Virus genome (UHGV): UHGV-0135626
DNA length: 36,007 nt
Reading direction: 5' to 3' (one strand)
From: a virus
In this document: in pieces, positions 1 through 31,976 of the stretch
How positions within the stretch are numbered: the stretch's first letter is position 1
Layout of the letters: every line of letters begins with the position of its first letter
The notes under the pieces: generated by a model
Seen by the model: only the letters and a program-made list of their open reading frames with translations
The model's database searches: none
Told to the model about the DNA's origin: nothing
Made by a program: the position numbers and the translations under genes

Positions 1-94
1 ACAGTATCCGACCTTAGTTATCAATTGAAAAGCCTACAAATATCGTTCAGCCAATCAAGAAATTTTTTCAGCCGGAGGTGTGTACTTCAAAAAA

Positions 95-136
95 TGTGAT
101 GAATGTCACATGCAGGTGCTCTCATACACCTGCATG
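95..136 (-). terminator. Tandem stem-loops downstream of the minus-strand operon; candidate terminator
   Basis: 10-bp inverted repeat CATGCAGGTG (109-118) / CACCTGCATG (127-136) a few nt after the stop of the 144-710 gene. Second palindrome TGTGA-N6-TCACA (95-110) is followed on the minus strand by a run of six U (89-94). Confidence 0.4.
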
Positions 137-143
137 TAGACTA

Positions 144-710
144 TTAATCATTCAATAATCTATATTTTCTTTTGATTAAATCTTCACCTTTTTTGGTGAA
201 CACAAAACCAAATTGCGATTTTTTGTTCAGCCTAAGGACTCTGTTATCCAACGCATCGGTTGATGGAATCAATGTTTGATCATCTATCCAATTAAGTAGC
301 GTAAGAAAGTTCAGCAGCCTCAACGTTGTTGTGCGAAGCTCTTTCGATATATTTTCAATGCTGGCAATTCGTCTTTCTTTTTTCTCAGGTGGTACAGATA
401 ATTGTTCTTGAGGTTTCGTGGGTAGATAATCAATTTCGTTTGCTGAATCGAATGATATGTGTGGCGTAATTTTGCTAAAAAAGCCTTTCGCTGACTCACT
501 TGATAATAAACCAGACCTATTCATATCGTTTGTTATTCTGTACAGGAGTGGACTGTGTTTCATTTCAGGATAACGTTGATAAAAGTTAAGCAATTCAAAA
601 GCAGCATTAGCACCAACAAGAAAATCAGAAGGATCGCTGACTTTCCAGAAAGAATGATTTTTCTTAGCGCCAGTGGTGTCAACAAATGATAATTCTTTTA
701 ACCAACTCAT
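144..710 (-). CDS. Hypothetical protein, about 188 aa, last gene of the helicase operon
   Basis: ORF track 144-743. Start moved to the internal ATG at 710 (MSWLKEL...), which has a strong SD (AAAGGAG, 6-nt spacer); the ATG at 743 has none. No recognisable motif. Confidence 0.55.
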   Translation of the reverse strand: MSWLKELSFVDTTGAKKNHSFWKVSDPSDFLVGANAAFELLNFYQRYPEMKHSPLLYRITNDMNRSGLLSSESAKGFFSKITPHISFDSANEIDYLPTKPQEQLSVPPEKKERRIASIENISKELRTTTLRLLNFLTLLNWIDDQTLIPSTDALDNRVLRLNKKSQFGFVFTKKGEDLIKRKYRLLND

Positions 711-775
711 GATGTGCTCCTTTCTAACAAGTGAGCACATCATAGAATTAGTAGATAGGGGGTAAATATGAAATG

Positions 776-1054
776 TTACGGCAACCTGCTCAGTATTTCC
801 TCTAGATCTTTTTTTGTCATATTGGAGTTCTCATAGATGCGCATGATTTTCTCACGCGTCTTAGCGGAAACCCCAACGGCAGATGTGACTTTGTCAAATT
901 CAGCCATAGTCATCGTCTCCAGAATGGCATTGATAACTTCAGCCTTAGACATCTTGATTTTTTTCTCTTTGAGTTTTATTTGAAATTTTCCAAGTTTTTC
1001 ATTGGCCTTATCAGACAATGCCACTTGGCAATAAGTTGTTTTCTTTTCGCTCAT
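776..1054 (-). CDS. Small hypothetical protein, 92 aa, possibly DNA-binding
   Basis: Complete ORF starting 2 nt after the helicase stop, same strand. Lys-rich; no clear catalytic motif. Confidence 0.55.
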   Translation of the reverse strand: MSEKKTTYCQVALSDKANEKLGKFQIKLKEKKIKMSKAEVINAILETMTMAEFDKVTSAVGVSAKTREKIMRIYENSNMTKKDLEEILSRLP

Positions 1055-1056
1055 AA

Positions 1057-2616
1057 CTAATCTCGTTTCAGAACTCCAAAATCGAATGCTCCATCAATAG
1101 GCAATACACCTTCTGCAAAGCCAGGTGTGGTGTCGATGATGTGTTTTCGCTCATAAGAGTGAGACAACAGGTATTTGTTGCTAATGTCAATGAAATCAGT
1201 GATAAAACACACGTTTGCCTGATTCTTCTTGGCTCGTAAGCCACGACCGACACGCTGTCTCATTTCAACTTCTGCTTTCCCACCACCAGCAAGAATGACC
1301 GCGCCCACACTTGGCACATCAACACCGACATCCAGAATAGTCGAGCCTATTAAAACATCTATTTCGCCAGACGCTAAACTGTTCAGCTTTGCTTGCCTTG
1401 TCGTCTGGTTAGATTCCCCATAGATGAAATCAACTCTAAGACCTGACTCCTTCATCATCTCCATCAGGATTTGCCCGTGGCGTTTAAGACGAACCAGAGT
1501 CATGCAGTTGAGTGAATGTTGCTTATAAAGCAATGCCTCGCGCACTATGGCCTCGTTACGTCCCAAATTATACACGATCCCCAACTGATAAGCCTTTTGG
1601 TAGGCGGTGCTCATACCAACTCTAAAATTGAGGTGTTTGTTGGCAAGTTCGGCCTTGATTCTGGCCTCGTCTGGCTTGTAGGCAACTTTATGATAAAGGA
1701 AGTACGGCTTTGCCAGAATGCCTCGATCAATCAGGTACTTTTCTGTGACTTTAATTTCAATTCGCCCGGCCACCGCCATCAGGCGCATGTTGGCTTCCGT
1801 CGAATCCTTCATGAACGGCGTGGCTGTAAGCGCCAGACGATAGTCTGCGTTCACACATAATCTGGCGATGTCATAGAAATTTGAGCCTGAAGACTCATGC
1901 GCCTCTTCCAGAATAAGAAGAGAGACACTTGAAAGGAAGCGTTTCACCAACTCCCGACGTTTGAGGTGGTAGCTTTTCTTATCTGGTGTTGCATCGCGTG
2001 GTGGTTCTTCGAGGAAACTTGCAAGAGTTTGAACTGTAGCGACGTTGATATGTCGTGATACCTGGAACTCACCCGAGCCAATGACTCCAACCTTTTGGTC
2101 TTTTAACCACGGTTCGCCATTTTCGGCGCGGTAGTCGATGGATCTCTGGAAGTTTTCGGCCATTTGAAACATCAGAACAGAGCGGGTTGTTAAAAATAAT
2201 GTCATTCGACCGATACGTGCAGCTGCTTTGCAGGCAACGTTAGATTTCCCACCACCAGTAGCGATCTGGGCAATCATCATTCCCTCGCGAACTAGTGTTT
2301 CCACAGCCTGATCCTGATATGCATAATCAGGATTGTATGGGAATGGGTTAACCGCCGGATTTGGCTTTCCAAGCGCCGGGGCTTTGTCTTTGCGGATATG
2401 AACACATTTGATGCCCGACTTGTTCAAGTTCGCCGCTACAGGCTTGGCAAAGCCAGCAGGGAACGAGTTTTTACTCCAGTTGAACATCGTGCTTGTGCCC
2501 TTCCAGTCGCCAGTCTCGACTTCGTAGCTCAACATTTGCTGCACCAGTTGCTTTACCTTGTCATCTGCGCCAGAAATAAGCGCATTTACTGCGTTAGATA
2601 CAATCCGAACAGTCAT
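1057..2616 (-). CDS. Superfamily 2 DEAD/DEAH-box helicase (ResIII/UvsW-like)
   Basis: 519-aa ORF with Walker A IATGGGKSN, motif II LILEEAHE, motif III LTATP, motif VI QRVGRGLR. A small gene directly downstream recalls the T4 uvsW/uvsW.1 arrangement (analogy only). Confidence 0.85.
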   Translation of the reverse strand: MTVRIVSNAVNALISGADDKVKQLVQQMLSYEVETGDWKGTSTMFNWSKNSFPAGFAKPVAANLNKSGIKCVHIRKDKAPALGKPNPAVNPFPYNPDYAYQDQAVETLVREGMMIAQIATGGGKSNVACKAAARIGRMTLFLTTRSVLMFQMAENFQRSIDYRAENGEPWLKDQKVGVIGSGEFQVSRHINVATVQTLASFLEEPPRDATPDKKSYHLKRRELVKRFLSSVSLLILEEAHESSGSNFYDIARLCVNADYRLALTATPFMKDSTEANMRLMAVAGRIEIKVTEKYLIDRGILAKPYFLYHKVAYKPDEARIKAELANKHLNFRVGMSTAYQKAYQLGIVYNLGRNEAIVREALLYKQHSLNCMTLVRLKRHGQILMEMMKESGLRVDFIYGESNQTTRQAKLNSLASGEIDVLIGSTILDVGVDVPSVGAVILAGGGKAEVEMRQRVGRGLRAKKNQANVCFITDFIDISNKYLLSHSYERKHIIDTTPGFAEGVLPIDGAFDFGVLKRD

Positions 2617-2657
2617 AAACCTCTTTCCTTAGTGCCTTTTGTATGTTATTTGGCTAT

Positions 2658-2680
2658 TATAATAAGTAAGTGATTACTTA
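2658..2680 (+). promoter_or_regulatory. Candidate promoter/operator: consensus -10 hexamer abutting a palindrome
   Basis: Perfect TATAAT at 2658-2663, then TAAGTAA-gtga-TTACTTA (7-bp arms, 2663-2680) ending at the first codon of the ParB-like operon. The -35 element is weak. Confidence 0.35.
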
Positions 2681-3379
2681 GTGTATTGTAGCAATAAAAT
2701 GGATGTAAAAATCACGATTTTGCAGGTTGATGTTGCCAACCTTCGCCCGAATACCTGGAACACCAATTCGGTTGGTGCGCAGAATTTTGAAAAACTGAAA
2801 GGTTCTATCGAAAAATTGGGCTTTTTTAAGCCAATTTTGGCTCGTGAACTTGAAGATGGATTTTTTGAAATCCTCGGCGGCGAACATCGCTGGCGTGCCG
2901 CTATTGAGCAAGGAATTTCAACGGTTCCAGTGCTTTCTGTGGGCAAAATTAGCGATGTCGTAGCTAAACAGATGTCACTGGTGGACAACGAGCGATACGG
3001 TGAAGACGACCAAATCGCATTGCAACGCTTCATTGAAGAAATTCAGTCAGAACTTGACTATCAACTGTCTGAAATCGCCCCGTATGACGACGAAATCTCG
3101 ATGGTTTTAGCAAAAGAGGCGGCAATCGACCTTGAAGCACTGGAGGCGTTGTCTCGTGGTAGTGATGAGCCTGTCGATACCGACAAACGAGAGAAAACCG
3201 AACGTGTGGGTGCGGAACATCAGACCATGCGCTTCAAAGTAACTTTCGATGCGTCAGATCGTGTTGCAGAAACCATAAAAAACATCATCAAAGAGCAGGC
3301 TATTAACACCGGTAATGAAATGGAGAACGCTGGTGAGGCTCTGGTGTGGCTGGTCGACTACTACAAGGAGCGTATGTAA
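2681..3379 (+). CDS. ParB/Srx-like nuclease-domain protein, copy 1
   Basis: ORF begins with GTG at 2681 (alternative ATG at 2699); neither has a strong SD. ParB N-terminal box FEILGGEHRWRAAIEQG; acidic C-terminal half. Stop overlaps the next start (TAATG at 3377-3381). Confidence 0.75.
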   Translation: MYCSNKMDVKITILQVDVANLRPNTWNTNSVGAQNFEKLKGSIEKLGFFKPILARELEDGFFEILGGEHRWRAAIEQGISTVPVLSVGKISDVVAKQMSLVDNERYGEDDQIALQRFIEEIQSELDYQLSEIAPYDDEISMVLAKEAAIDLEALEALSRGSDEPVDTDKREKTERVGAEHQTMRFKVTFDASDRVAETIKNIIKEQAINTGNEMENAGEALVWLVDYYKERM

Positions 3380-4047
3380 TGACCAAAAAGTTTGAAATCG
3401 TATATCGCGACCCGGCAGATCTTATTCCCTATGAGATGAATGCCAAAAAGCATGATGAACAGCAGATCAGAGATCTGGCCGCAGCCATTAAAAAGCGCGG
3501 ATTTGACCAGCCAATTACGGTCGATAAGAACGACGTAATTATTACTGGTCATGGCCGCCGTGAGGCTGCAATTTTTGCTGGACTTGAGCGCGTACCGGTT
3601 ATTGTTCGCGATGATCTCAGTGATGACGAGGTTCGTGCGAAGCGCCTTGAAGATAACCGACTTGCCAGCATTGATTACGATGCAATTAAGCTACAGAAAG
3701 AGCTTGAGTCGCTTGTTCTGGACGATATCGAGGTTTTCGGCTTTGAAGAGCGTGAGTTGAATGTTCTCGTTGGCAGTATGACAGAAGAAATGGACACCGA
3801 CTCGCTAGTTATCGATCTTGGCGAAGAAACTAAACGACAGAAGGATGAACACACCGAGATCAGTCGTGAAGTTGCAGCGGAAGAAGTACGTGTTGTCGAC
3901 GTATTGGGCTTTAAAACGCTTCCTGCTGGCTCTGCCATTGTTGTTGGTGATTTGCTTGCCCACATGGAAGAAATGACGGGAGAAAGCGGGGTAGACGCAT
4001 TTGTGGCATATGCGGAGAAGATCTCTTCCGGGGAGATGGCTGCATGA
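3379..4047 (+). CDS. ParB/Srx-like nuclease-domain protein, copy 2
   Basis: Start taken at ATG 3379 (MTKKFEIV), overlapping the upstream stop; the track ORF begins at 3346. ParB box IITGHGRREAAIFAG; acidic C-terminal region. Confidence 0.75.
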   Translation: MTKKFEIVYRDPADLIPYEMNAKKHDEQQIRDLAAAIKKRGFDQPITVDKNDVIITGHGRREAAIFAGLERVPVIVRDDLSDDEVRAKRLEDNRLASIDYDAIKLQKELESLVLDDIEVFGFEERELNVLVGSMTEEMDTDSLVIDLGEETKRQKDEHTEISREVAAEEVRVVDVLGFKTLPAGSAIVVGDLLAHMEEMTGESGVDAFVAYAEKISSGEMAA

Positions 4048-4709
4048 GCAAATACATCATCAACGTATCGTTTCAGACACGCGTAAATAAAACCACGCGC
4101 ACGTTGGAAATCGCTGAGTCGTTCGGGCTTGGTCTGGACGAAAAAGAGTGGACGCTTTACGACAATCTGGAGCTGGAAGTGAAGCAGGGCGATGTGGTGT
4201 ACATCACCGGCCAATCCGGTTCCGGCAAATCCGTTGTGCTGCGCGAGTTGCAACGACAGATGAAGGATGAAGGGTTGTCTGTAGCCTCCATCGATGATTT
4301 TACCTTCGATAATGAGGTTAACGTCATCGATCAGTTGGGCAAAACGACCAGTGATGCGCTTGGGTTGTTATCTATGGCTGGTCTGAACGATGCATATCTG
4401 TTTGTTCGCAAGCCTTCTGAAATGTCAGACGGTCAGAAATATCGTCTCAAGATTGCCAAACTGATTGAGTCAGGCGCTAAAGTGTGGGCTGCTGACGAGT
4501 TCGGTGCTGTTTTAGACCGTGTAACCGCTCAGGTTGTGGCATCTAACCTCCAGCGTGTCGCTCGAAAGGTTGGTGCGACGGTAATGGTGGCGACGACTCA
4601 CGAAGACCTGAAGAACGCGCTGCGCCCGGATATGCAGATCACCAAGCACTACAAAGAACGCGTGAAGGTGGAATATCACAATGGCAGTCATGATGAGGTC
4701 CATTCATGA
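4044..4709 (+). CDS. Stand-alone ABC-type ATPase, nucleotide-binding domain only
   Basis: 221 aa. Walker A GQSGSGKS, signature-like SDGQKYRL, Walker B VWAADEF, H-loop TTHED. SD GGGGAG 8 nt upstream; ATGA overlap with both neighbours. No membrane domain or partner. Confidence 0.8.
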   Translation: MSKYIINVSFQTRVNKTTRTLEIAESFGLGLDEKEWTLYDNLELEVKQGDVVYITGQSGSGKSVVLRELQRQMKDEGLSVASIDDFTFDNEVNVIDQLGKTTSDALGLLSMAGLNDAYLFVRKPSEMSDGQKYRLKIAKLIESGAKVWAADEFGAVLDRVTAQVVASNLQRVARKVGATVMVATTHEDLKNALRPDMQITKHYKERVKVEYHNGSHDEVHS

Positions 4710-5596
4710 CGGACATCATCATTAAACGCTACCGCCCTGAAGAGTTTCCGCGTCATCTGGACTTTCTGGAGCGAATGACTGTCACAAAGGGAACTGTAGA
4801 GGACTGGCACGCTCTTAAGTCGCTTCACTACAAAACAGACGGCAAACCTTTCGCGCCAACTTACTATCGCTGCGAACTTGATGACCGTCTGGTGGGCGTC
4901 GTGGTTATGGCTTACCCGAAACTACTGTTGGCACCTCGCCACCGCATGTTTCCTAAGTTGAAACCAACCACTAATACCACCGTGGCTAACCAGTACTGGG
5001 GTCGGTACGTGAATAACAACTTTGCGGTGATCAGTCGCTCAGTTGTGGATACTCAGTATCGTGGCGTAGGCGTCTCTTATCGAATGATTAACCTGGTTAG
5101 CAGGATGCATGACCGGCCAATCATTGAGATCCAGTCCTCGATGAGCAAATACAATCCCTTCGCCATGAAAGCAGGGTTTAAGTTCATCCGCCCTGAGCGA
5201 CCGAAGAGCTATGAAAGTGCACTGCGTGTATTCCAGCGCCATTTCCGTTCCGACCCGGGTGATAACGAGGCGATCGTCAAAGAGTTGTTCGCAATGAGCG
5301 AGTCTCGTCGTCGCCGTGCACTGCGTGATCTGGTGGCGGACTACCACAAGAACAGTTCCCTGGCAAAAGCTGGGCGGAATCGTGGCACGACGATTCAGGA
5401 CATTGCCGACAGTCTGGTGGACGAGGCCAGCATTGTGAAGCTGCTCAAGGACATTCACAACCTGAGCTTTACGTCTCCGTTGTATGGTGTGTACCGAAAC
5501 CCTGACTTTGGCCGTCGACTGCCTGACACGCTGCCACTGCTGGCATTCGACAAACAACCTTTGGATAAACCGTTAGAAATTGCTTTACCGGCATAA
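4706..5596 (+). CDS. GNAT-like acyltransferase-domain protein with a C-terminal extension of about 120 aa
   Basis: 296 aa. GNAT acyl-CoA motif QYRGVGVSYRMI and downstream NPFAMKAGFKF. SD GAGG 7 nt upstream; ATGA overlap with the ABC ATPase stop. Confidence 0.6.
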   Translation: MTDIIIKRYRPEEFPRHLDFLERMTVTKGTVEDWHALKSLHYKTDGKPFAPTYYRCELDDRLVGVVVMAYPKLLLAPRHRMFPKLKPTTNTTVANQYWGRYVNNNFAVISRSVVDTQYRGVGVSYRMINLVSRMHDRPIIEIQSSMSKYNPFAMKAGFKFIRPERPKSYESALRVFQRHFRSDPGDNEAIVKELFAMSESRRRRALRDLVADYHKNSSLAKAGRNRGTTIQDIADSLVDEASIVKLLKDIHNLSFTSPLYGVYRNPDFGRRLPDTLPLLAFDKQPLDKPLEIALPA

Positions 5597-5605
5597 GGAT
5601 TTGCC

Positions 5606-5872
5606 ATGACGTTAACCGATAAACAAAAGGACATCATCAAAACGCTCAATCTCGGTTATGAGCGAGGTCATCTACTTGACCTGGACGAATTGCTTGAAGT
5701 TTTGCCGTACAAGACAACCAAGCAAAGTATCCAGTTCTCAATTCGCGCTCTGATAAAAAAGGGGCTGGTGGAGAAAGGGCATACGCGCCAACGCAGTGAC
5801 AATCGCTATCACCGCCGAACTCTTGGGTTAACCACTTTAGGTCGAGCCAAAGCGAAGTTACTGGTGATGTAA
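5606..5872 (+). CDS. Small basic protein, putative winged-helix DNA-binding regulator
   Basis: 88 aa, SD AAGGA 5 nt upstream, 9 nt after the GNAT gene stop. Basic C-terminus (RQRSDNRYHRRTLG); the helix-turn-helix assignment is pattern-level only. Confidence 0.5.
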   Translation: MTLTDKQKDIIKTLNLGYERGHLLDLDELLEVLPYKTTKQSIQFSIRALIKKGLVEKGHTRQRSDNRYHRRTLGLTTLGRAKAKLLVM

Positions 5873-5896
5873 TCGGTCTGGGAGCTTATTTAAAGA

Positions 5897-5951
5897 CCTG
5901 CTTCTGTATATATAAATAATAAGAAACTTATTAAATATATACGGAAGCAGG
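5897..5951. repeat. Long imperfect inverted repeat with an AT-rich interior
   Basis: CCTGCTTC (5897-5904) pairs with GAAGCAGG (5944-5951); the interior also pairs imperfectly (tgtatatat...atatatacg). Confidence 0.5.
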
Positions 5952-5990
5952 CTTAATAAGACATGCCCAGACCTAATTAAACACCCCAGA

Positions 5991-6059
5991 AAACAAGTTG
6001 GTTAGCAGATGCAGTAAACAAGTTGTTTTAGAGCGCATGGACGCGCTCTGTGTGTTTTA
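5991..6059 (+). promoter_or_regulatory. Repeat cluster upstream of terS; candidate regulatory or packaging-recognition region
   Basis: AAACAAGTTG twice (5991-6000, 6016-6025), the second forming the near-palindrome AAACAAgTTGTTT (6016-6028). GTTTTAGAG twice (6023-6031, 6051-6059) flanking hairpin AGAGCGC-atggac-GCGCTCT. No clean sigma70 -35/-10 found. Confidence 0.35.
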
Positions 6060-6068
6060 GAGGGATCT

Positions 6069-6701
6069 ATGACGGTCGAAAAAGACGAGGTAAAAACTCG
6101 CCTGACACCAGCGGAGTGGGCCGAAGCTGAAGCCAAATGGACGTCAGGCGAATATACACTCTCAAAGCTGGAGGAAGAGTACGGCATTCGTCGTGAAACA
6201 CTCTCCAGACATTTCAAAAAGCGAGGATTAGAGAAAGGCGCGGACTCTGTTGGGAAGATGGTTCGTGAGTCTCTTAAATCTGACGCAGAGCTTCGCGCTA
6301 AAGCCCGTGCGGAAAAGATAGAAGAACGTCGTACACGTTATGACGGCTGGGCGTATGCGTTGGGGCAGATGGTGATGGTCGAAGTCACTACGGCCAAACG
6401 TGAGGGTAAGCCTTTAGGGGCGATTGAGGATTCTCTCAAGAGCTTACAGAGAGCAAGTAATACCCTTGCAAAATGCTTTGAAGTTTCGTCCAAAGCATTG
6501 GGCATGGATCATGCGGAAAATGACGAGGAAGAAATTCCGAACCTGGTATTTGGTGAGCTTACGCCTTCCCAGGTGGCGAAATTACGTCAGGAAGACGACG
6601 AGCCTGAAATCATCGATGACGAATTGCTTGAGACGTTGGAAGAAGAAGCTCTAAGCGAATTTGATGCGACAGATGATGGAAGTGAAGGGGAGGACGAATA
6701 A
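6069..6701 (+). CDS. terS: Terminase small subunit
   Basis: 210 aa immediately upstream of terL with TAATG overlap. N-terminal HTH-like segment (YTLSKLEEEYGIRRETLSRHFKKRG) and a very acidic C-terminus. SD AGAGGGA. Confidence 0.65.
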   Translation: MTVEKDEVKTRLTPAEWAEAEAKWTSGEYTLSKLEEEYGIRRETLSRHFKKRGLEKGADSVGKMVRESLKSDAELRAKARAEKIEERRTRYDGWAYALGQMVMVEVTTAKREGKPLGAIEDSLKSLQRASNTLAKCFEVSSKALGMDHAENDEEEIPNLVFGELTPSQVAKLRQEDDEPEIIDDELLETLEEEALSEFDATDDGSEGEDE

Positions 6702-7957
6702 TGGCAATCCCGTCCTCGCTCAGTCTTGTGCAACTGCATTCTGGACAGATGAAAGTCTTCCAGTCTCCGCATCGATTTAAAGTTGTTTGTGCTGGTCGAC
6801 GCTGGGGAAAATCCCGGTTGTCGATCTCCACTATTATTCGTGCGGCGGCAAAGGAAAAAAAGCAAAGGGTCTGGTATGTCGCTCCTACTTACCAGATGGC
6901 TCGCCAGATTTTGTGGGACGATCTACAGGAAGTTCTGCCTCGTAAGTGGGTTAGGAAAAAGAACGACACCACGATGACAATCGTGTTGAAGAACGGTTCG
7001 GAGATCGCCCTCAAAGGTGCTGATAAGCCTGACACTCTGCGCGGCGTAGCGTTGCATTTTGTAGTGCTTGATGAATTTCAGGATATGAAGGCTGACACCT
7101 GGTACAAGGTGTTACGACCTACTCTTTCATCGACACGCGGCGGTGCACTGATCATTGGTACGCCAAAAGGCTTCTCGGAATTTCACAAACTGTGGACTAT
7201 AGGCCAGAACGTAGAGCTGCAAAGAAAGGGACAGTGGAAGAGCTGGCAGTTTGTAACTGCCGATTCTCCGTTTGTACCTACGGCGGAAATTGAAGCTGCT
7301 AAGAACGATATGGACCCGAAATCGTTCGCTCAGGAGTACCTGGCGAGCTTTGAGAACATGTCCGGGCGCGTTTACTACCCGTTCGATCGTAACGTGCATG
7401 TAAAACCGCTTCAGTTCAACCCTCGGTTGCCTATATGGGTAGGGCAGGACTTCAACATTGACCCGATGTCTTCAGTAATTTTGCAACCTCAGCCAAATGG
7501 TGAGCTATGGGCAATTGATGAATTGGTGCTCTTTTCCTCTAACACGGCAGAGGTTTGTGATGAGCTTGAGAGACGCTTCTGGCGCTGGAAATCACAGATA
7601 ACGGTATTTCCAGATCCGGCAGGTGCTTATCGCCAACATGCTCGCGGGGAGTCTGACGTCGACATATTCAAAGAGAAGGGATTCTTACGTGTCGATTATT
7701 CGAAAAAGCACCCGCCAATTGCGGATCGTGTTAATGCTGTTAACCGAATGCTGATGACCGCATCTGGAGATATCCGGCTGTATATCGATCCGAAGTGCAA
7801 GCATTTGATTGATTCACTGGAAAAAGTCATCTACAAGCCTGGAACACGAGATATGGATAAGACAGGTGGCATTGAGCATAGTGCAGACGCATTGGGCTAT
7901 CCAGTACATCGTAGGTATCCAGTCAAAAACCGTGTTATTCTTGGTGGTTCTCGATAG
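6701..7957 (+). CDS. terL: Terminase large subunit (ATPase and nuclease)
   Basis: 418 aa. Walker A-like VVCAGRRWGKS, Walker B HFVVLDEFQDM, acidic residues in the C-terminal half; sits directly upstream of the portal gene. Confidence 0.8.
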   Translation: MAIPSSLSLVQLHSGQMKVFQSPHRFKVVCAGRRWGKSRLSISTIIRAAAKEKKQRVWYVAPTYQMARQILWDDLQEVLPRKWVRKKNDTTMTIVLKNGSEIALKGADKPDTLRGVALHFVVLDEFQDMKADTWYKVLRPTLSSTRGGALIIGTPKGFSEFHKLWTIGQNVELQRKGQWKSWQFVTADSPFVPTAEIEAAKNDMDPKSFAQEYLASFENMSGRVYYPFDRNVHVKPLQFNPRLPIWVGQDFNIDPMSSVILQPQPNGELWAIDELVLFSSNTAEVCDELERRFWRWKSQITVFPDPAGAYRQHARGESDVDIFKEKGFLRVDYSKKHPPIADRVNAVNRMLMTASGDIRLYIDPKCKHLIDSLEKVIYKPGTRDMDKTGGIEHSADALGYPVHRRYPVKNRVILGGSR

Positions 7958-7983
7958 GTAAGTAATTATCTAAGGTTATTCAA

Positions 7984-9558
7984 ATGGAATTGAACGACAA
8001 ACAAATTAAGGATCTGGTGGCGCGACGCCACCCGGAATACGAAAAGAAAAAAGAACATTGGGACTTCCTCGCCAGCACTTACGCTGGCGGGCGTGGTTGG
8101 TTTACAGACAATATCTTTCGTTACTTTAAAGAGGGAGATCAGGAGTTTAAGGAGCGAGTTGAACGTGCTTATCGCTTCAACCACACTCGTGAGGTGGTAA
8201 ACCTCATCAACAAATATCTCTTTAAAGAAGACATTCATAGAAATATCGAAGAGGCACCAGAGCAGATCCGCAATTTCTGGAAACGTGCGACTCGCCAGAA
8301 TGCCTCTATTGACTCATTTATGGCCGCTATTGATTTGCAGTCGTCTATTTACGGTCGCATATGGGTTGTTGTCGATAGCACGATGAGTGGTGATGTTGAG
8401 TCAGTAGCTGACGAGAAAAAGAAAGATGCTCGCGCCTACGCCTACTGGATTTCACCTCAGCAAATGCTGGATGTGGCATGGGACGACGACGGGAATATGT
8501 TGTGGGCGTTAATTGTGGAAGTCGCTCGTGATGACGCAGATCCTTTTACTTCTACAGGTCAGGAATACCAACGTTATCGTCTGTGGACACAAAACGAGTG
8601 GTATCTGTTCCGTGAGGAAGTGAAGAAGGGCGCTGGTGGAGCAGGTCGCCGTCAGGCAAAAGTTATTTTAGAGGATAGCGGTGAGCATAATCTCGGCGTA
8701 GTTCCTGTGTTTCCTGTTGATTGTATTGGAGAAAGTGAATCACCGTATTTCAGCCCATCGTTGATCGATGATATCGCTTATCTTGATCGTGCGGTTGCAA
8801 ACTATCTGTCAAACCTTGATGCCATTATTCAGGATCAGACATTTAGCCAGTTGGCTATACCGGTACAGTCGCTTTTACCTGGTGATGAAAACCACACTAA
8901 AGTGCTTGAAATGGGCACAAAGCGAGTCTTCACCTACGATTCTGAAGGTGGAAACCAGCCGTTTTATCTGTCACCAGACCCGAAACAAGCTCAGATGATC
9001 ATCACTACGATTAAGACGGTGATTAACGAAATCTACCATTCAGTTGGTGTAGCTGGTGAGCGAACGAAGCAGGACAACGCACAGGGAATCGATAATTCAT
9101 CTGGTGCCGCAAAAATGTATGACTTCCAGCGTGTAAATAGCTTGCTTGTCACAAAAGCAGAGCGTCTGGAAAGGGCTGAACGCCAAATCATGCTACTGGT
9201 TGCGAAATGGATGGGGGTAGATCTGGACGAAGACCACTCTTTAATTGCGTATCCAGAAAGTTTCGATATTCGTGGCCTTACTGATGAATTTTCTGTTGCC
9301 GAGAAACTGTCATTACTTCAGGCACCGGACTCTGTACGTCGTCACCAGATGGAAATGCTTATTGAGAAGATTTTCCCGAACATTACTGAGGCGATGAAAA
9401 AGGAATTTGATAAAGATCTCTTGAATTTTCCTCCAAAAAATGATCTAAATACCCTTGAAAATAAGTCAGTACTTACTTATGATCGTGGTGCGGCCCAAGA
9501 AAGCGGGCAAGATCAACCCCGAGGGAATGGGGACTCATCTACTCAAGAGAACGAGTGA
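7984..9558 (+). CDS. Portal protein
   Basis: 524-aa ORF directly after terL, with an acidic and Gly-rich C-terminus; assigned by size and conserved gene order. Confidence 0.75.
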   Translation: MELNDKQIKDLVARRHPEYEKKKEHWDFLASTYAGGRGWFTDNIFRYFKEGDQEFKERVERAYRFNHTREVVNLINKYLFKEDIHRNIEEAPEQIRNFWKRATRQNASIDSFMAAIDLQSSIYGRIWVVVDSTMSGDVESVADEKKKDARAYAYWISPQQMLDVAWDDDGNMLWALIVEVARDDADPFTSTGQEYQRYRLWTQNEWYLFREEVKKGAGGAGRRQAKVILEDSGEHNLGVVPVFPVDCIGESESPYFSPSLIDDIAYLDRAVANYLSNLDAIIQDQTFSQLAIPVQSLLPGDENHTKVLEMGTKRVFTYDSEGGNQPFYLSPDPKQAQMIITTIKTVINEIYHSVGVAGERTKQDNAQGIDNSSGAAKMYDFQRVNSLLVTKAERLERAERQIMLLVAKWMGVDLDEDHSLIAYPESFDIRGLTDEFSVAEKLSLLQAPDSVRRHQMEMLIEKIFPNITEAMKKEFDKDLLNFPPKNDLNTLENKSVLTYDRGAAQESGQDQPRGNGDSSTQENE

Positions 9559-9579
9559 TAAGTAACAAAAGGAATTTTT

Positions 9580-10467
9580 ATGAATCTGTGGCAAATGCTT
9601 TTGGCCCGTCGTGGTCTGATGGATGTCGCTGAAGCGCATGAGCGTGGAGGCGCTGGCGGTGTAGCTGCTGATAATGAGCAGAGTACACAAGATCCTGACA
9701 AACAGGGTGAACAAAAAGAGCAGCCGAAGGGTGATGACGAATACGCTGGCATGACTCATGAAGAGTTACTGGCCGAACTTCGCAAAACCAAGAAAGCTGG
9801 TGCTGAACTGCTGAAAGAGAACATGAAGCGCAAAGAGAAAGAGCGCACATTGGCCGATCAGCTTGCTCAGTACGGTGAAATCGACCCGGCGCGTGCTCGC
9901 CAGCTTTTAGAAGCTGAACAGGCCGCAGAAAACGCACGTCGTGAGGCGGAGCAAGCTGAACTGGAGCGTCGTGGTGAGTTCGATGCTGTTAAAAAACAGA
10001 TGATCGAAGCACACCAGGCAGAGCTGGCACAGCGTGACGAACGTTATGCAGCACTGGAAAGTGAAAACGCATCACTGAAATCTCAATTAGTCGAGATGAC
10101 CGTGGGCGCTTCCTTCAGTAACTCTCTCTTCCTACGTGACAAAGTTCTGATGACTCCGGCAAAAGCCCGCGTGATCTACGGTTCTCATTTTGAAGTGGGT
10201 GAAGACGGTAGCGTAGTGGGTTATGACAAACCGGCAGGTCACAAAGAACGAGCTGTTCTGGTTGACGGTGAAGGTAAGCCGTTGCCGTTTGAATCCGCGA
10301 TTGAACGCATTGTGCGGGCAGATCCGGAAGCTGACGCATTGATGCGTAGCGAAGCCAAGCAGGGTGTAGGCTCACATTCCAAATCGACCTACACAATATC
10401 CCAACCGAAGAACAAGTCGACTATGGATAAGTTGGCCTCCGGTCTGGGGAAAATTGGACTTAAGTAA
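9580..10467 (+). CDS. Scaffolding protein (putative)
   Basis: 295 aa between portal and capsid genes; long charged Ala/Glu/Arg/Gln-rich helical stretch. SD AAAAGGAA 5 nt upstream. No protease motif seen. Confidence 0.55.
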   Translation: MNLWQMLLARRGLMDVAEAHERGGAGGVAADNEQSTQDPDKQGEQKEQPKGDDEYAGMTHEELLAELRKTKKAGAELLKENMKRKEKERTLADQLAQYGEIDPARARQLLEAEQAAENARREAEQAELERRGEFDAVKKQMIEAHQAELAQRDERYAALESENASLKSQLVEMTVGASFSNSLFLRDKVLMTPAKARVIYGSHFEVGEDGSVVGYDKPAGHKERAVLVDGEGKPLPFESAIERIVRADPEADALMRSEAKQGVGSHSKSTYTISQPKNKSTMDKLASGLGKIGLK

Positions 10468-10492
10468 CATCTAAATCAAAGGGAATTGATAG

Positions 10493-11368
10493 ATGCCATT
10501 ACTGCGTGAAGAAGCTGAAAAGCTGTCTAACAACGAACTTGAACAGGGTGTGATCGAAACTATCATCGATCGCGATGACCTGTTTGCCATCTTGCCTTTT
10601 ATGAAAATTAATTCAAAGGCATATCTGTACAACCGTGAAAAAACGCTGAGTGAAGCTACCTTCATCGACGTTAACGACACCATCCCTGAAGGTGCAGCAA
10701 CCTTCGAAGAATGCGTTGCGAAACTGCGTATTCTGGCTGGTGACGTAGACGTTGATAAATTCCTGGCGACCACTATGGCCGACACCAACAACCAGTTGGC
10801 TATTCAGGTTCGTCAGAAAGTTAAAGGTCTGGCTCGTGCGTTCCGTCGCAACCTGATTTTGGGTGACTCCAGCTCCAACAACAAAGCGTTTGACGGCATT
10901 CCACGCCTGATGCACGCAGATCAGAAGATCGATATCGCCGGTGCATCTATGACTTTCTCTATGTTCGACGAACTGGTCGATGCGGTGAAAGATCTTGGTG
11001 CTGACTGCATCATGATGCGTTCAGAGCACCTGCGTGCTTACCGTGCGCTGCTGCGTACAGTAAACGTAGGCCCGTCTGAAATCATGATGGAGAACTTCGG
11101 TCGTCCGATGCTGTGTCATAACGGCGTTCCGTTCATCATCAACGACTTCATCCCGACCGATTCTGGCAAAGCAAGCATCTACTGCCTGCATCTGTCAGAA
11201 GAGAACGGCGTTACAGGTCTGTATGGCGGCGACAACGCAGGTATCGTTGTTGAAAACATTGGTACTGTACAGAACAAAGACGCAGTACGTACCCGTGTGA
11301 AGTGGTACTGCTCTCTGGCGAATAAGCACGATAAGGCTATCGCTGCATTGACCAATGTAAAAATTTAA
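10493..11368 (+). CDS. Major capsid protein (putative)
   Basis: 291 aa after the scaffold gene, SD AAAGGGAA, followed by a strong intrinsic terminator. Assigned by position and size. Confidence 0.65.
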   Translation: MPLLREEAEKLSNNELEQGVIETIIDRDDLFAILPFMKINSKAYLYNREKTLSEATFIDVNDTIPEGAATFEECVAKLRILAGDVDVDKFLATTMADTNNQLAIQVRQKVKGLARAFRRNLILGDSSSNNKAFDGIPRLMHADQKIDIAGASMTFSMFDELVDAVKDLGADCIMMRSEHLRAYRALLRTVNVGPSEIMMENFGRPMLCHNGVPFIINDFIPTDSGKASIYCLHLSEENGVTGLYGGDNAGIVVENIGTVQNKDAVRTRVKWYCSLANKHDKAIAALTNVKI

Positions 11369-11400
11369 TCAGTGCAGTAGATAAGTAATTATCTATGTTA

Positions 11401-11430
11401 AAGGGTGGGCTATACGCCCACCCTTTTTGT
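11401..11430 (+). terminator. Rho-independent terminator after the capsid gene
   Basis: AAGGGTGGGC-tatac-GCCCACCCTT followed by TTTTGT: 10-bp GC-rich stem plus T-tract. Confidence 0.8.
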
Positions 11431-11441
11431 AGGAGCGAGAA

Positions 11442-12362
11442 ATGCCAGAACAAAAGATGAAGATTACGGAAGAGGCATTTTCGGATTTTACGGGGCATAT
11501 GTGCCGTGCCGGATTTACCAATTCTATCTCCGATGAACCTTTAACCGAGCGACAACAAAGTCAGCTATCTGCTTGTTTGCAGGCGGTTCCCTTCTCCCAA
11601 TCCGTAAACATAACCCCGGCTTCACCGTCAGTTTTGGTTGGGAAAACTGTTCAACTTAGTGCAGGTATTACTATGGGTAAGAGTGCCAGTTCATTCACCT
11701 GGAAGTCAGCCAATGATCAAATTGCAACCGTCAACGGCACTGGATTAGTAACTGGCGTAGCACCAGGCAAAGTGAAAATTACCGCAACTGATCAGGAAAC
11801 CCAGCTTTCCGCGTCAGTGGAAGTCACCGTAAATCCGGTAGCCGTTCAATCCGTAACGGTAACGCCAGACTCAACCTCTGTTGAGAAAGGGAAATCAGTC
11901 AGTCTGAAAGCGAATGTTCAGCCGTCAAATGCGACGAATAAGGCAGTTACCTGGTCTTCCAAAAATGAAGACAAGGCAACGGTAGACCAGAGCGGGAACG
12001 TTACTGGTGTAGAAGTTGGCACTGCGACGATTGAGATCGTTTCCCAAGATGGCAGCAAAAAGGCAACTGCAACGGTGGAAGTAACTGCGCCTGTTGTGGC
12101 TGTTACTGGTGTCGAAATCGACCCAAATAGCACAACCGTTGAGGCAAACAAAACTGTTCAGCTGACCGCAAATGTCGAGCCGGCAGGAGCAACAAATAAA
12201 ACCGTTACTTGGGAATCCAAAAATACCGAGTTTGCAACGGTGGACAGCGAAACCGGTGTTGTAACTGGTGTTGCGGCTGGCACTGCCACAATCGAGGTTA
12301 CTACCCAAGATGGTAGCCACAAAGCGACAGCGACTGTAGAAGTTACTGTCGCACAGGAATAA
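11442..12362 (+). CDS. Ig-like (Big_2-type) repeat protein, probable head decoration protein
   Basis: 306 aa with three tandem Ig-like units of about 80 aa, each with a KAVTWxSKN...ATVDxxGxVTGV...GTATIE pattern. SD AGGAG 6 nt upstream. Confidence 0.7.
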   Translation: MPEQKMKITEEAFSDFTGHMCRAGFTNSISDEPLTERQQSQLSACLQAVPFSQSVNITPASPSVLVGKTVQLSAGITMGKSASSFTWKSANDQIATVNGTGLVTGVAPGKVKITATDQETQLSASVEVTVNPVAVQSVTVTPDSTSVEKGKSVSLKANVQPSNATNKAVTWSSKNEDKATVDQSGNVTGVEVGTATIEIVSQDGSKKATATVEVTAPVVAVTGVEIDPNSTTVEANKTVQLTANVEPAGATNKTVTWESKNTEFATVDSETGVVTGVAAGTATIEVTTQDGSHKATATVEVTVAQE

Positions 12363-12406
12363 CCGATATTGGGCGGCTTTCGCCGCCCATGTAGAGAGAA
12401 AGCGTT

Positions 12407-12841
12407 ATGAAACCAGCAAAAATTGTTTTATTAGAACCGCAATTTTCCGGTTATTCGGGAATGTTGTGCGGCGTTCAGTTCGAGAATGGGGTGTCCGTCG
12501 CAGAGTTGCCTTTTATCGATCAGCAGAGGATTTGTGCTTCAATGCGAGCGTCAACAGTAGAGGGCAAAAATGTTTCTCCGTCTGCCGCATACAGTGATCG
12601 TGGTGAATTGACCGCAGACCTGATTACCGAGCCAGCAGCGCCTGACATTGTGCCAATGAAACGTGGGACACCAGATGAACCGGCCAAACAGATTCAGACT
12701 TTCACACGAGAAGAGCTGGAGTCCATTGCAGACAACGAAGGTATTGCCGGTCTACGAGTTATTGGTAATCAGGTTGGTGTTAAAGCGAAAGGAATTGTCG
12801 AAATGATTGACGGCATCCTGAAAGCACAAGGCGGTGAGTAA
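12407..12841 (+). CDS. Hypothetical structural protein (head-tail region)
   Basis: 144-aa ORF; its stop overlaps the next start (TAATG at 12839-12843). Function not recognisable from sequence. Confidence 0.55.
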   Translation: MKPAKIVLLEPQFSGYSGMLCGVQFENGVSVAELPFIDQQRICASMRASTVEGKNVSPSAAYSDRGELTADLITEPAAPDIVPMKRGTPDEPAKQIQTFTREELESIADNEGIAGLRVIGNQVGVKAKGIVEMIDGILKAQGGE

Positions 12842-13674
12842 TGGCGCAGATCGACTCGTATCGTAGCGGTGAAGCTGTTTCTCTTTCATTTGCCTTCAAC
12901 GTGCTGGATATCGAATCTGCTACCTACACAGTAAAGGACAGCACCGGGGCTATTCTCGTTGATGGCGAGCCGCTAGAAATTACCAGCGGTCAAATGTCGA
13001 TTCCGGTTGTCGTGTCGGCTGAATATAACCAGCTCTCTGAGAAAGAGCGAGATCTGCGGTACGTCATTGTGAAGGCTGTTGCATCGGGTCTGACGCATGA
13101 AGAGCGGCAAATGTATGTTCTGCTGAATAGTTTTGAACTGTCGATACCAGAACAGTCGTTTGCAACTGTCGCTGATGCTCAAATGCAGGCGATCGATATG
13201 CTGAATGGGGACACTTTGCTGTCGGATGGTGAAGGCTTAATGCGCAAGCGTCTCATTGAGGCTACCAGACGAATTAAAACTTTACCGTTCTCAATCCGCA
13301 AAATTCTACGTATCGACTTTGACCGATACGATCGCCCTCAAAATATGCTGAATGTGTATGACATTCCGTGGGGAGCAGATGGAGCGTACCGGCATGATTT
13401 AGTCGATTGGGAAAAGATGACGCAGGAGAAGTTTGAAGAGTTCCCTGACTACTTCAAAGAAGCGTTGATGCTTGCCGTTGTCAACGAAGCGTGTGAGATC
13501 GCAAATGGCAATGATGTTGCCGCAGCACGAGAGGATGGCATTTTGTCAGAGTCCATCGGTGAAACAACCAACATGTACCGTACCGGTAAAGCTGCAAACG
13601 TGCATGTGGCTCGTAGTACCTGGCGCTTGCTGGTCAGTTACATCAACAACCGTATGATTGTTCGCCGTGCGTAA
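12841..13674 (+). CDS. Hypothetical structural protein
   Basis: 277-aa ORF, translationally coupled to the upstream gene, inside the structural module. No diagnostic motif. Confidence 0.55.
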   Translation: MAQIDSYRSGEAVSLSFAFNVLDIESATYTVKDSTGAILVDGEPLEITSGQMSIPVVVSAEYNQLSEKERDLRYVIVKAVASGLTHEERQMYVLLNSFELSIPEQSFATVADAQMQAIDMLNGDTLLSDGEGLMRKRLIEATRRIKTLPFSIRKILRIDFDRYDRPQNMLNVYDIPWGADGAYRHDLVDWEKMTQEKFEEFPDYFKEALMLAVVNEACEIANGNDVAAAREDGILSESIGETTNMYRTGKAANVHVARSTWRLLVSYINNRMIVRRA

Positions 13675-13753
13675 CGCCAGTCGCATTATTTACTTTTGGT
13701 CGAAAGGGTTTTTGGCCAGTAATGAGAGCGACCGACAACAACAGGGAGAGAGC

Positions 13754-14098
13754 ATGAATATTTCATGGCAAACAGAAATTGCGATCTACCGCTTTGGCGC
13801 AAAGAACGTTTACGGCGAGGCGCAATTACAATTCGTCAGGAAGACGAATGTCGGCGTGGTTAAGTTCGAACAGAGTAATGAGAAATCGTCAGTTCGTGCT
13901 GATAGCTCTGGTAGTCGTGGTAAGGCGAGTCTGGAGCTGTTTGATGCTGTGTTAGTTGTCCCTTTAGAAGCGGCTGTACAACTTGATGATGTGCTGATCC
14001 TTGAAGGTCAAAAATTAAAGGTGTCCAGTGTTCATCGCCGCTGGGGGCTACGAGGAAGACCTGGGCATCTTGAAGTGGGGGCGAATATATGGGTCTGA
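13754..14098 (+). CDS. Head-tail connector or head completion protein (putative)
   Basis: Start moved from the track ORF (13658) to ATG 13754 (MNISWQTE), which has SD GGGAGAGAG 5 nt upstream. About 114 aa, typical for connector proteins. Confidence 0.5.
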   Translation: MNISWQTEIAIYRFGAKNVYGEAQLQFVRKTNVGVVKFEQSNEKSSVRADSSGSRGKASLELFDAVLVVPLEAAVQLDDVLILEGQKLKVSSVHRRWGLRGRPGHLEVGANIWV

Positions 14099-14562
14099 AA
14101 TACGATGCGCATCAGTTCAAACGTGCGGGGAATAGACTCAATAACAGCCAGAAAGCATTTAAGCGATATCTTATTCGGGACATGGAAAAGCTGGCGCGTT
14201 TGGTTGAGCGTCTCAGCCGTGCAATGGCCCCGCTGGAAACCGGATCTCTGGAGACAGCCATCTTTGCCAGGGTGATTAAAGAAGGTTATTCAGGGCTGCG
14301 CATTGAGCTTTCTGTGTCTGGAGCAAAACCACGTCAGGGGCATCCGGGCGTAGAAGTAGGTGACTATGCTAAGTACATGGAGCTGGGTAAATACCGACTC
14401 GGTTATCTTTCTCGAATGAAGAACGTGACAAACCCACCAATTGCCGGTGTTAAACCCCGTGTTGGGCCACACTTTCTGGAAAGAGCGGTGGAAATTAGCG
14501 AGAAGCAGTTCTCAGAAGCGATTCTTGAGGCTGCCAGAAAAGCCGGATTTACGAGAGGTTAA
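14089..14562 (+). CDS. Head-tail joining or tail completion protein (HK97 gp10-like, putative)
   Basis: 157-aa ORF overlapping the upstream stop by 10 nt. Assignment by size and position only. Confidence 0.5.
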   Translation: MGLKYDAHQFKRAGNRLNNSQKAFKRYLIRDMEKLARLVERLSRAMAPLETGSLETAIFARVIKEGYSGLRIELSVSGAKPRQGHPGVEVGDYAKYMELGKYRLGYLSRMKNVTNPPIAGVKPRVGPHFLERAVEISEKQFSEAILEAARKAGFTRG

Positions 14563-14563
14563 T

Positions 14564-14947: not shown

Positions 14948-14956
14948 CTCAATTGG

Positions 14957-14970
14957 TAAGTATATACTTA
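14957..14970. promoter_or_regulatory. Perfect 14-bp palindrome TAAGTATATACTTA upstream of the major tail gene
   Basis: Exact self-complementary 14-mer in the 74-bp gap before the major tail protein start; same TAAGTA half-site as the other intergenic palindromes. Confidence 0.4.
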
Positions 14971-21436: not shown

Positions 21437-21518
21437 GCATCTGGATAAGTAAGTACTAATTTACTATCATTGTGGCGCTGACAGGATGTTAGCGCCTACT
21501 TATTTCAAGGATGAAACA

Positions 21519-27766: not shown

Positions 27767-27859
27767 TTGTGGAAAAAAATAATCATTTCTGTAAAAATAG
27801 GTAGGTACTAACTTAATGGTGGGCATGGAACGCCCACCATATCTAGGAGCAAAGGATAA

Positions 27860-31946: not shown

Positions 31947-31976
31947 TTTACAGATAGGTAAGTGCATACCTATATA
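31947..31976 (+). promoter_or_regulatory. Candidate sigma70-type promoter with an embedded operator palindrome
   Basis: -35-like TTTACA (31947-31952), 18-bp spacer, -10-like TATATA (31971-31976). The spacer holds the perfect inverted repeat ATAGGTA-agtgca-TACCTAT (31954-31973). Confidence 0.45.

Follow-up and report, generated by a model that had tools for sequence, protein, structure and literature searches.

What is the function of a palindrome that lies between a helicase gene and a divergently oriented ParB-like operon in the virus genome UHGV-0135626? The window, by which we mean the whole stretch of 36,007 nucleotides analysed, is a 36-kb piece of an SSU5/pHCM2/pMT1-type phage-plasmid, with 96–99.6% identity to the Escherichia phages CMS-2020a, PhiR41_1 and Cyrano and about 80–83% identity to Klebsiella relatives and Salmonella phage SSU5. 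An initial annotation of the locus had described a consensus -10 hexamer fused to an inverted repeat, placed where a repressor operator would cover the start of transcription, and had suggested from the recurrence of the half-site in two other intergenic regions that one regulator controls several operons. Here we show that the palindrome belongs to a family of dispersed sites, and we lean towards the view that these sites are the operator network of the phage-plasmid's lysogeny repressor.

A family of dispersed palindromes

The locus itself is as initially described: the hexamer TATAAT (2658–2663) runs into an inverted repeat (2663–2680), whose arms TAAGTAA (2663–2669) and TTACTTA (2674–2680) form a perfect 7-bp inverted repeat around a GTGA centre. 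This palindrome is one copy of a dispersed site family with the consensus a-TARGTAAGT·ACTTACYTA-t. A search of the window with the pattern TAAGTAANNNNTTACTTA, allowing up to three mismatches, gave 13 matches compared to 1.29 expected, and none of 100 shuffled sequences reached 13, confirming that the palindrome occurs above background frequency. On a symmetric weight matrix, where we define a strong site as one scoring at least 16 bits, the window contains eight sites compared to 0.03 in shuffled sequences, and seven of the eight lie in the non-coding DNA that makes up only 5.7% of the window (P = 1.5e-8). As the matrix was seeded from sites in the window these figures are partly circular, but no such circularity affects the pattern search or the recurrence of the sites in PhiR41_1, SSU5 and Cyrano described below. 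The half-site TA[AG]GTA given in the initial annotation agrees with the family consensus, and both of the further sites named there (14953–14970 and 31955–31972) are true family members by pattern search and matrix. The suggestion of multiple sites serving several operons was therefore sound but understated, as five of the eight copies in the window had been missed (those beginning at 7955, 9462, 11378, 21446 and 27798) and each genome carries some 20–24.

Among related complete genomes, strong sites number 20 in PhiR41_1 (0 expected), 22 in SSU5 and 24 in Cyrano, and all eight positions found in the window are occupied in the four genomes compared, the sequence at each drifting within the consensus. 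Copies are present in replication and nucleotide-metabolism operons as well as in structural and lysis operons. Most lie no more than about 30 nucleotides after a stop codon (typically -7 to +31, with some overlapping the stop) and 2–130 nucleotides before the next start. The palindrome at 2663 has orthologs in PhiR41_1, Cyrano, Y. pestis pMT, S. enterica, Enterobacter, Klebsiella and Moellerella; its left half and centre, GTAAGTAAGTACTTAT, are kept in the Y. pestis, Salmonella, Enterobacter, Klebsiella and Moellerella elements, and its right half is degenerate in SSU5 and some other relatives. The surrounding helicase/ParB region is found in 813 PLSDB plasmids, including those of the Y. pestis pMT type and the S. 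enterica pHCM2 type.

The motif is specific to the SSU5/pHCM2/pMT1-type element family. Exact copies across 596 Gb of genomes were scattered singletons, with several on one contig only in a 92-kb contig from Kluyvera, and 75 of the 120 viral loci with an exact copy were SSU5-like, the other 45 being mostly single copies. A literature search for the motif sequence and for palindromes of pHCM2 and pMT1 found nothing relevant; we found no earlier description of the motif or the operator network in the searchable literature, only the annotation 'putative repressor'.

Recognition as double-stranded DNA

The variation among copies is informative about the form in which the palindrome is recognised. 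In 41 distinct 18-mers, mismatched mirror pairs were G·T in 31 cases and A·C in 28, mirror columns 3/16 and 4/15 showed no covariation (p = 0.20 and 0.64, respectively), and the copies score equally on either strand. RNA stems of 5–8 bp are possible at the sites, and these are weak (-1.5 to -6.8 kcal/mol, two being no better than shuffled sequences); there is no U-tract at the palindromes. Thus neither the stable stem and U-tract of an intrinsic terminator nor the compensatory changes of a structured RNA are found, and the half-sites are conserved independently, by sequence and without strand bias, which indicates a double-stranded site for a symmetric dimer. A palindrome of about 14–20 bp whose half-sites are kept in sequence and not in pairing is what would be expected of an immunity operator. 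A hairpin in RNA or single-stranded DNA was considered and rejected on the absence of covariation, the near equality of G·T and A·C pairs and the weakness of the stems.

A candidate repressor beyond the window

The initial annotation had put forward the 88-amino-acid product of 5606–5872 as a candidate DNA-binding protein. From comparison of the sequences, an XRE-type repressor encoded outside the window appears to be the better candidate. In Cyrano this is CYRAN_45, a 128-amino-acid 'putative repressor' on the minus strand that adjoins the integrase gene, approximately 12 kb beyond the right end of the window. The repressor gene is a core gene of the family: 865 plasmids have it, and their taxon profile matches that of the 813 plasmids with the ParB region. 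In Cyrano, Y. pestis, S. Typhi and Klebsiella its promoter, TTTACA-17-(TG)TAATAT, is followed after one base by GGTAAGyACTTACC, which is the 14-bp core of the palindrome and lies over the expected start of transcription. A copy at the repressor's own promoter, the arrangement expected under autoregulation, is therefore present in four lineages, as the core only without the outer TA. The geometry is shared with the locus in the window, the core starting one base after the -10 hexamer at the repressor promoter and two bases after TATAAT at 2658–2680.

The repressors of the Y. pestis, S. Typhi and Klebsiella elements are 56–66% identical to that of Cyrano, and the helix-turn-helix (HTH) segment GYKNxNNLSLIKSGKIPLP is nearly invariant across the repressor family. 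An AlphaFold model of the protein consists of a five-helix XRE HTH domain (predicted local distance difference test, pLDDT, of 83–89 in the core) plus short C-terminal helices. A sequence search of the repressor against PDB gave no match but a fold search did: the nearest solved folds are C.BclI, C.AhdI, HigA, SinR and the DNA-binding domains of the P22 c2 and 434 repressors, which are dimeric binders of palindromes, and the model superposes on Cro/C1-type repressors and C-proteins with a root mean square deviation of 1.4–1.9 Å over about 60 residues. The repressor carries no S24 peptidase domain, thus SOS induction must work another way.

A distant Providencia plasmid, CP096299.1 (38% GC), contains 23 copies of the variant TAnGTAT....ATACnTA compared to 0.25 expected; exact half-site counting was too strict to recover this motif, which was recovered by an iterated weight matrix. 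The repressor homolog encoded there is 39% identical, its recognition segment is changed to GYSSHNNISMLKSGKMLFP and the inner half-site of the palindrome is changed too, and one copy of the variant (at 14293) lies in the gap upstream of the repressor homolog (ATG at 14548). Immunity specificity therefore appears to change over evolution in this superfamily. The recognition helix of the 88-amino-acid protein, on the other hand, is identical in Providencia, where the palindrome differs, and hardly varies within the broad family to which the protein belongs (268 cluster representatives). The choice of this product in the initial annotation was reasonable, as it has a predicted winged-helix fold, but it is probably not the binder of these sites, given the breadth of the family, the unchanged helix in Providencia and its silence in the lysogen; it is a possible binder in the lytic phase.

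A different gene of these elements is annotated as 'transcriptional repressor' (phrog_1444, SSU5_121, CYRAN_114). It was rejected as a candidate, since its product belongs to the FljA family PF03614, no copy of the motif lies upstream of it and it is weakly expressed. In PhiR41_1 the gene lies at 37192–37710, which corresponds to about 2 kb left of the start of the window, and the match is to the Pfam family Flag1_repress (FljA, phase-1 flagellin repressor), which raises the possibility that host flagellin expression is a target of these phage-plasmids.

Overlap with candidate promoters

The A/T block ATTATAAT at 2656–2663 contains two overlapping perfect TATAAT hexamers, one on each strand. 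From the plus-strand hexamer, rightward transcription is predicted to start at about 2670 and thus inside the palindrome; if the minus-strand hexamer (2656–2661) is the functional -10, the palindrome would instead occupy the spacer and -35 region of the leftward promoter. No good -35 is present for the plus-strand hexamer, and sigma-70 scans of the window did not call a plus-strand promoter at 2658. Furthermore, the plus-strand hexamer is TATAAT only in the E. coli lineage, being TATAGT, TATGGT or AATAGT elsewhere, whereas the minus-strand hexamer reads TATAAT, CATAAT, TATTCT or TAGAAT in all eight lineages compared. The initial reading of TATAAT as the -10 of the rightward operon therefore holds in its perfect form for the E. 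coli lineage only, the complementary strand keeping an equal or better hexamer, and the block may provide the -10 of the helicase promoter on the left, whether in addition to that of the rightward promoter or in its place. The two hexamers are among only seven perfect TATAAT in the window (14.2 expected), just two of which are on the plus strand in 36 kb, and sigma-70-like matches are also below shuffle expectation (18 compared to 23.2 and 17 compared to 27.1). This shortage fits selection against spurious promoters in a genome that is transcribed almost wholly one way.

Overlap with a promoter is clearest at 9455–9483, the best promoter match in positions 1–20000, which is conserved in PhiR41_1 (49147), SSU5 (3545) and Cyrano (3528). 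A second promoter of this kind, TTGAAA-17-TATTAT/TATCAT, is found in PhiR41_1 and SSU5, again with the palindrome lying exactly in the 17-bp spacer. Near-consensus sigma-70 promoters such as these need no activator, and RNA polymerase would be kept off by a protein occupying the spacer. The proposal that the palindrome is an operator over a transcription start is thus plausible for the copy at 2663, where it fits the geometry of the -10 and core at the repressor promoter, but does not extend to most copies, which have no recognisable promoter.

Transcription in the lysogen

Expression levels were taken from the published transcriptome of the LF82(Cyrano) lysogen and are given as normalised reads, for which background is 9.8. 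The first ParB_N gene was at the detection floor (4.99 in both replicates), the second gave 9.5 and the rest of the ParB-like operon was silent too, CYRAN_119 to 123 being at floor or background. These values fit the initial suggestion of a repressor operator at the head of the operon. On the leftward side (776–2616) both the helicase (46) and the next gene (114) were expressed, and this left-on, right-off asymmetry fits an operator that covers the rightward start. The late genes (5–24) were all silent, including CYRAN_4, which lies 100 nucleotides downstream of the promoter at 9455–9483. The repressor gene was expressed (95.8), the gene for the 88-amino-acid protein was silent (7.8), and the ParA operon at 34604–35631 (ParA, 34604–35272; partner, 35272–35631) was expressed. 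The lysogen thus shows the repressor on and its proposed targets silent, a pattern that fits repression without proving it and that does not discriminate against a model in which the sites bind an activator.

By far the most abundant transcript of the element was that of CYRAN_43 (Cyrano 40268–40822, minus strand, hypothetical protein), which lies just upstream of the integrase–repressor module and gave 7084 normalised reads, approximately 720-fold above background.

Proposed mechanism

From the site family, its symmetry, placement and conservation, and the expression states of the neighbouring genes, we infer a binder, a sign of regulation and a mode of action as follows. A symmetric dimer, most likely of the 128-amino-acid XRE repressor with its Cro/C1-type HTH, would recognise the consensus palindrome in double-stranded DNA, and in the plasmid (lysogenic) state would occupy the approximately 20 sites of the genome. 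Where a site overlaps a core promoter (2658–2680, 9455–9483 and the repressor's own promoter) initiation would be blocked, so that repressor bound at the 2663 site would shut off the rightward ParB-like operon. The intercistronic copies in early and late operons would probably act as roadblocks or insulators, leaving the lytic genome silent. A fuller version of this proposal, which we hold only tentatively, is that the sites are palindromic, orientation-independent stoperators, through which a small dimeric XRE repressor silences a 108-kb phage-plasmid in two ways, at promoters and as an obstacle to elongating RNA polymerase at about 20 sites between cistrons of the early and late operons; 2656–2680 may in addition be a compact divergent switch that keeps the ParB-like operon off and the helicase on.

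Several observations weigh against the sites being operators of the lysogeny repressor. The core at the repressor promoter, without the outer TA..TA, scores just 6–7.5 bits, and the repressor is proposed as the binder on the basis of position, co-occurrence and one example of covariation. At most copies there is no recognisable promoter, so that the action suggested for them is conjecture. The candidate -10 of the helicase gene lies right beside the palindrome, and this gene is expressed in the lysogen. Of 20 genes immediately following a site, 19 were silent, which is not significant compared to a generally silent genome (p = 0.12), and expression steps at site junctions were not significantly larger than elsewhere (p = 0.17), the outcome of these tests being as predicted in direction or neutral. 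Finally, SSU5, which was isolated from virions, lacks the repressor module, corresponding to CYRAN_41-46 (integrase, XRE repressor and a divergent small gene; Cyrano 39491–43038), yet it keeps its 22 good sites. By its gene content SSU5 appears to be lytic and to have arisen by deletion from a temperate phage-plasmid, in parallel to D29, which has been described as a lytic deletion derivative among the L5-group mycobacteriophages. Retention of the sites can be explained by a recent deletion, as in D29, although it would also fit a function in the lytic phase.

Alternative explanations

The sites might belong to a regulator of the lytic phase, either an activator that replaces the -35, as Lpa does in P1, or a Cro-like late repressor, with the 88-amino-acid protein as candidate. 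We consider this unlikely, although it accounts for several of the observations. Genes next to the sites would be expected to be silent in the lysogen under this explanation also, and the sites persist in SSU5, which lacks the repressor module and retains the 88-amino-acid protein (89% identity). The MarR/PadR-like winged helix of that protein is predicted with confidence, but its recognition helix, as noted above, does not follow the change of the palindrome in Providencia. P1 late promoters, of the form AAGTnACTT-N4-TAnnnT, share the half-sites and have a TAnnnT nearby, and most of the sites are without a -35, as at an activated promoter. However, TAnnnT at motif column 17 scores 2.87 bits in the plus reading and 3.07 in the mirror reading, hence the -10-like flank is mirror-symmetric and is part of a longer palindrome, ..tgaTAGG..CCTAtca.., and the -35 signal at the sites is not directional (p = 0.16). 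The result is a symmetric site with no fixed polarity, not an inverted repeat at a fixed distance before a directional -10. The Shine-Dalgarno sequences of several downstream genes lie within 10 nucleotides after the site, which must therefore be transcribed from upstream, and where a near-consensus sigma-70 promoter has the site in its spacer no activator is needed. The element also has no homolog of Lpa (tblastn, E>=0.09; no Pfam match to PF25716), the only weak similarity being to the open reading frame at 144–743, which has about 10 homologs, all in E. coli, and no PF25716 match. An Lpa-type late promoter, attractive because of the AAGT/ACTT half-sites, was therefore rejected.

It is improbable that the palindromes are centromere-like or KorB-like sites, serving partition or silencing, for the ParB_N proteins whose two genes directly follow the 2663 copy. 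ParB-family proteins do bind dispersed palindromes in other systems (KorB OB on RK2, the dispersed centromeres of N15), and the first of the two ParB_N proteins has a GxxRxxA-type box. Their genes, however, are at floor or background in the plasmid state, which is incompatible with a role in the lysogen, and it is the separate ParA operon that is expressed there. Only the N-terminal domain of these proteins matches ParB/Spo0J/Noc/KorB, with no match to the ParB, Spo0J or KorB HTH in the C-terminal parts, and the sites are not clustered by any par locus.

More remote is the explanation that the motif binds a protein of the host, either a transcription factor or a nucleoid protein, or that it spread between genes as a recombination or mobile palindromic cassette. 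The same motif does occur in elements of E. coli, Klebsiella, Salmonella and Yersinia, and variable modules such as the tail-fibre region are bordered by sites (27798, 31955), but exact copies elsewhere are mostly single, as described above, the motif is altered in the Providencia element, and its positions are conserved between genomes and not mobile. To our knowledge it matches no consensus of a known enterobacterial factor.

An element acting at the level of RNA (processing, stability, termination or a translational repressor hairpin) is hardly credible: the gaps between cistrons that hold the sites are indeed transcribed, and a protein of the FljA type is encoded in the family, the Salmonella FljA being an mRNA-binding protein, but the weak stems, the missing U-tract, the lack of G·U excess or compensatory change and the equal scores of the two strands all speak for conservation of the DNA sequence itself.

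Comparison with known systems

The arrangement that we attribute to the lysogeny repressor resembles both the stoperator network of Cluster A mycobacteriophages and the C1 operators of P1, while by our comparison it is a member of neither. Cluster A mycobacteriophages (L5 gp71, TipsytheTRex) have repressor sites, more than 20 of them, both at promoters and in the short spaces between genes of early and late operons, and these sites have been proposed to stop initiation and elongation. The 20–24 sites per genome described here are similarly placed in promoters and short intergenic spaces. However, the Cluster A stoperator is an asymmetric 13-mer recognised by a monomeric repressor that carries two DNA-binding domains, and its orientation follows transcription and is needed for function, whereas the sites described here are palindromes of 18–26 bp without strand bias and the candidate binder is a 128-amino-acid XRE-domain protein whose nearest folds are dimeric, in place of a monomer with HTH and stoperator domains. 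The hosts and phage lineage are also unrelated, and there is no homology to gp71.

P1 is likewise a phage-plasmid, in which one immunity repressor, C1, acts on many scattered operators of lytic promoters and regulates its own synthesis; the operators Oref, Omat, Ossb and Olpa are annotated in its GenBank record (NC_005856), from which we took the P1 features. The P1 operators are asymmetric 17-mers and its late genes are controlled indirectly via Lpa, whereas here the palindrome also lies between structural genes, and we found no sequence homology to C1 or Lpa. The late promoters of P1 (a 9-bp inverted repeat at -22 plus a -10) are alike in their AAGT/ACTT half-sites with TAnnnT a few bases downstream, and late operons are in both cases preceded by about a dozen copies or more. 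They differ in having AAGTnACTT-N4 where the present motif has AAGT·ACTT-ACY; in addition the flank here is mirror-symmetric and sites occur in early regions also.

Cro/C1-type repressors and the C-proteins of restriction-modification systems (P22 c2, 434, C.AhdI, C.Esp1396I) are dimers that bind palindromes of 14–20 bp overlapping core promoters, and they control their own synthesis. The predicted fold of the candidate repressor is of this kind, but those systems have a few clustered operators at one or two promoters, in contrast to about 20 dispersed genome-wide. On the IncP plasmid RK2 a dozen identical dispersed palindromes (OB) mediate global repression by one protein, KorB, including from promoter-distant sites. 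The dispersed palindromes and proposed global repression are shared with that system, but KorB belongs to the ParB family and is expressed while the element is a plasmid, whereas the ParB_N proteins of the present element are silent in the lysogen and have no HTH match.

Other features of the window

The coordinates of the sites and of the neighbouring features are collected in Table 1.

Table 1. Palindrome copies, candidate promoter elements and associated genes in the window
Feature	Position	Strand	Details
18-bp palindrome TAAGTAAGTGATTACTTA	2663..2680	none	From sequence, pattern search and weight matrix (24.6 bits)
TATAAT, perfect; candidate -10 of rightward (ParB-like operon) promoter	2658..2663	+	From sequence
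TATAAT, perfect; candidate -10 of leftward helicase promoter	2656..2661	-	From sequence
Divergent control region, helicase gene / ParB_N gene	2617..2698	none	82 bp; from sequence
DEAD/UvsW-type helicase gene (CYRAN_118 equivalent)	1057..2616	-	Start 2616; expressed in lysogen
First ParB_N-domain protein gene	2699..3379	+	ATG 2699; box GGEHRWRAA
Rest of ParB-like operon	3379..5596	+	Second ParB_N protein 3379–4047; ABC-type ATPase-like proteins 4044–4709 and 4706–5596
88-amino-acid winged-helix (MarR/PadR-like) protein gene	5606..5872	+	Predicted fold, pLDDT 94.8; binder proposed in the initial annotation
Palindrome copy TAGGTAAGTAATTATCTA	7955..7972		Overlaps large terminase stop codon, 11 nucleotides before portal gene start; orthologs Cyrano 2021, PhiR41_1 47640, SSU5 2032
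Near-consensus sigma-70 promoter TTGAAA-17-TATGAT	9455..9483	+	Spacer filled by copy 9462–9479; 100 nucleotides before next gene
Palindrome copy TAAGTCAGTACTTACTTA	9462..9479		Fills spacer of promoter 9455..9483, within portal gene 3' end
Palindrome copy TAGATAAGTAATTATCTA	11378..11395		9 nucleotides 3' of capsid gene stop; then terminator-like hairpin 11403–11419
Palindrome copy TTGGTAAGTATATACTTA	14953..14970		Second site of the initial annotation
Palindrome copy TAAGTAAGTACTAATTTA	21446..21463		9 nucleotides 3' of stop codon; then GC-rich hairpin 21474–21496
Palindrome copy TAGGTAGGTACTAACTTA	27798..27815		Between tail-tip (J-like) gene and tail-fibre gene
Palindrome copy TAGGTAAGTGCATACCTA	31955..31972		Upstream of lysis genes; third site of the initial annotation

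In the late region a GC-rich hairpin follows several of the palindromes within 3–11 nucleotides (11403–11419, 21474–21496 and 27816–27839); that following the capsid gene, with its T-tract, resembles an intrinsic terminator. The order stop codon, palindrome, hairpin and ribosome-binding site recurs, is kept in PhiR41_1 and SSU5, and is also found upstream of nrdA (PhiR41_1 3239, SSU5 67776).

The four-gene block at 2699–5596, which lies ahead of the terminase genes, encodes two ParB_N-only proteins followed by two ABC-type ATPase-like proteins and is clearly not a plasmid partition system. The C-terminal half of the first ParB_N protein is acidic. The start of its gene is ambiguous, as an in-frame GTG at 2681 abuts the palindrome and the ATG at 2699 is an alternative, and there is no recognisable Shine-Dalgarno sequence ahead of either; in the Y. 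pestis and Enterobacter relatives the annotated start is an in-frame ATG directly 3' of the palindrome.

Between the gene for the 88-amino-acid protein and the small terminase gene lies a long and very stable hairpin (5873–5975; RNA fold -50.6 kcal/mol, z -11.5), with arms CCTGCTTCTGTATATA and its complement and an AT-rich loop, at the centre of which (5934/5935) the SSU5 and Cyrano records start. Similar hairpins are present in PhiR41_1 (near 13449, 45596 and 75131) and Cyrano (near 31180, 78100 and 108358). The hairpin could be a bidirectional terminator, or could be related to packaging or genome ends.

Conclusions

The maintenance of the plasmid state and the lytic switch of SSU5/pHCM2/pMT1-type phage-plasmids are essentially undescribed, although the family is large and clinically relevant, comprising more than 800 PLSDB plasmids from Klebsiella, E. 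coli, Enterobacter, Y. pestis and Salmonella. Our analysis offers an explanation, in the form of probable repression, for the ParB-like operon being fully off in lysogens. The operator consensus, the map of about 20 sites and the named candidate repressor make the regulon directly testable and would allow immunity groups to be predicted. If the tentative stoperator version of the proposal is correct, this would be the first system of its sort outside the actinobacteriophages, and its family counts Y. pestis pMT1 and S. Typhi pHCM2 among its members, along with hundreds of plasmids from Klebsiella and E. coli. The operator network would also add a second, mechanistically distinct case of genome-wide prophage silencing by dispersed repressor sites to that so far known from mycobacteriophages.

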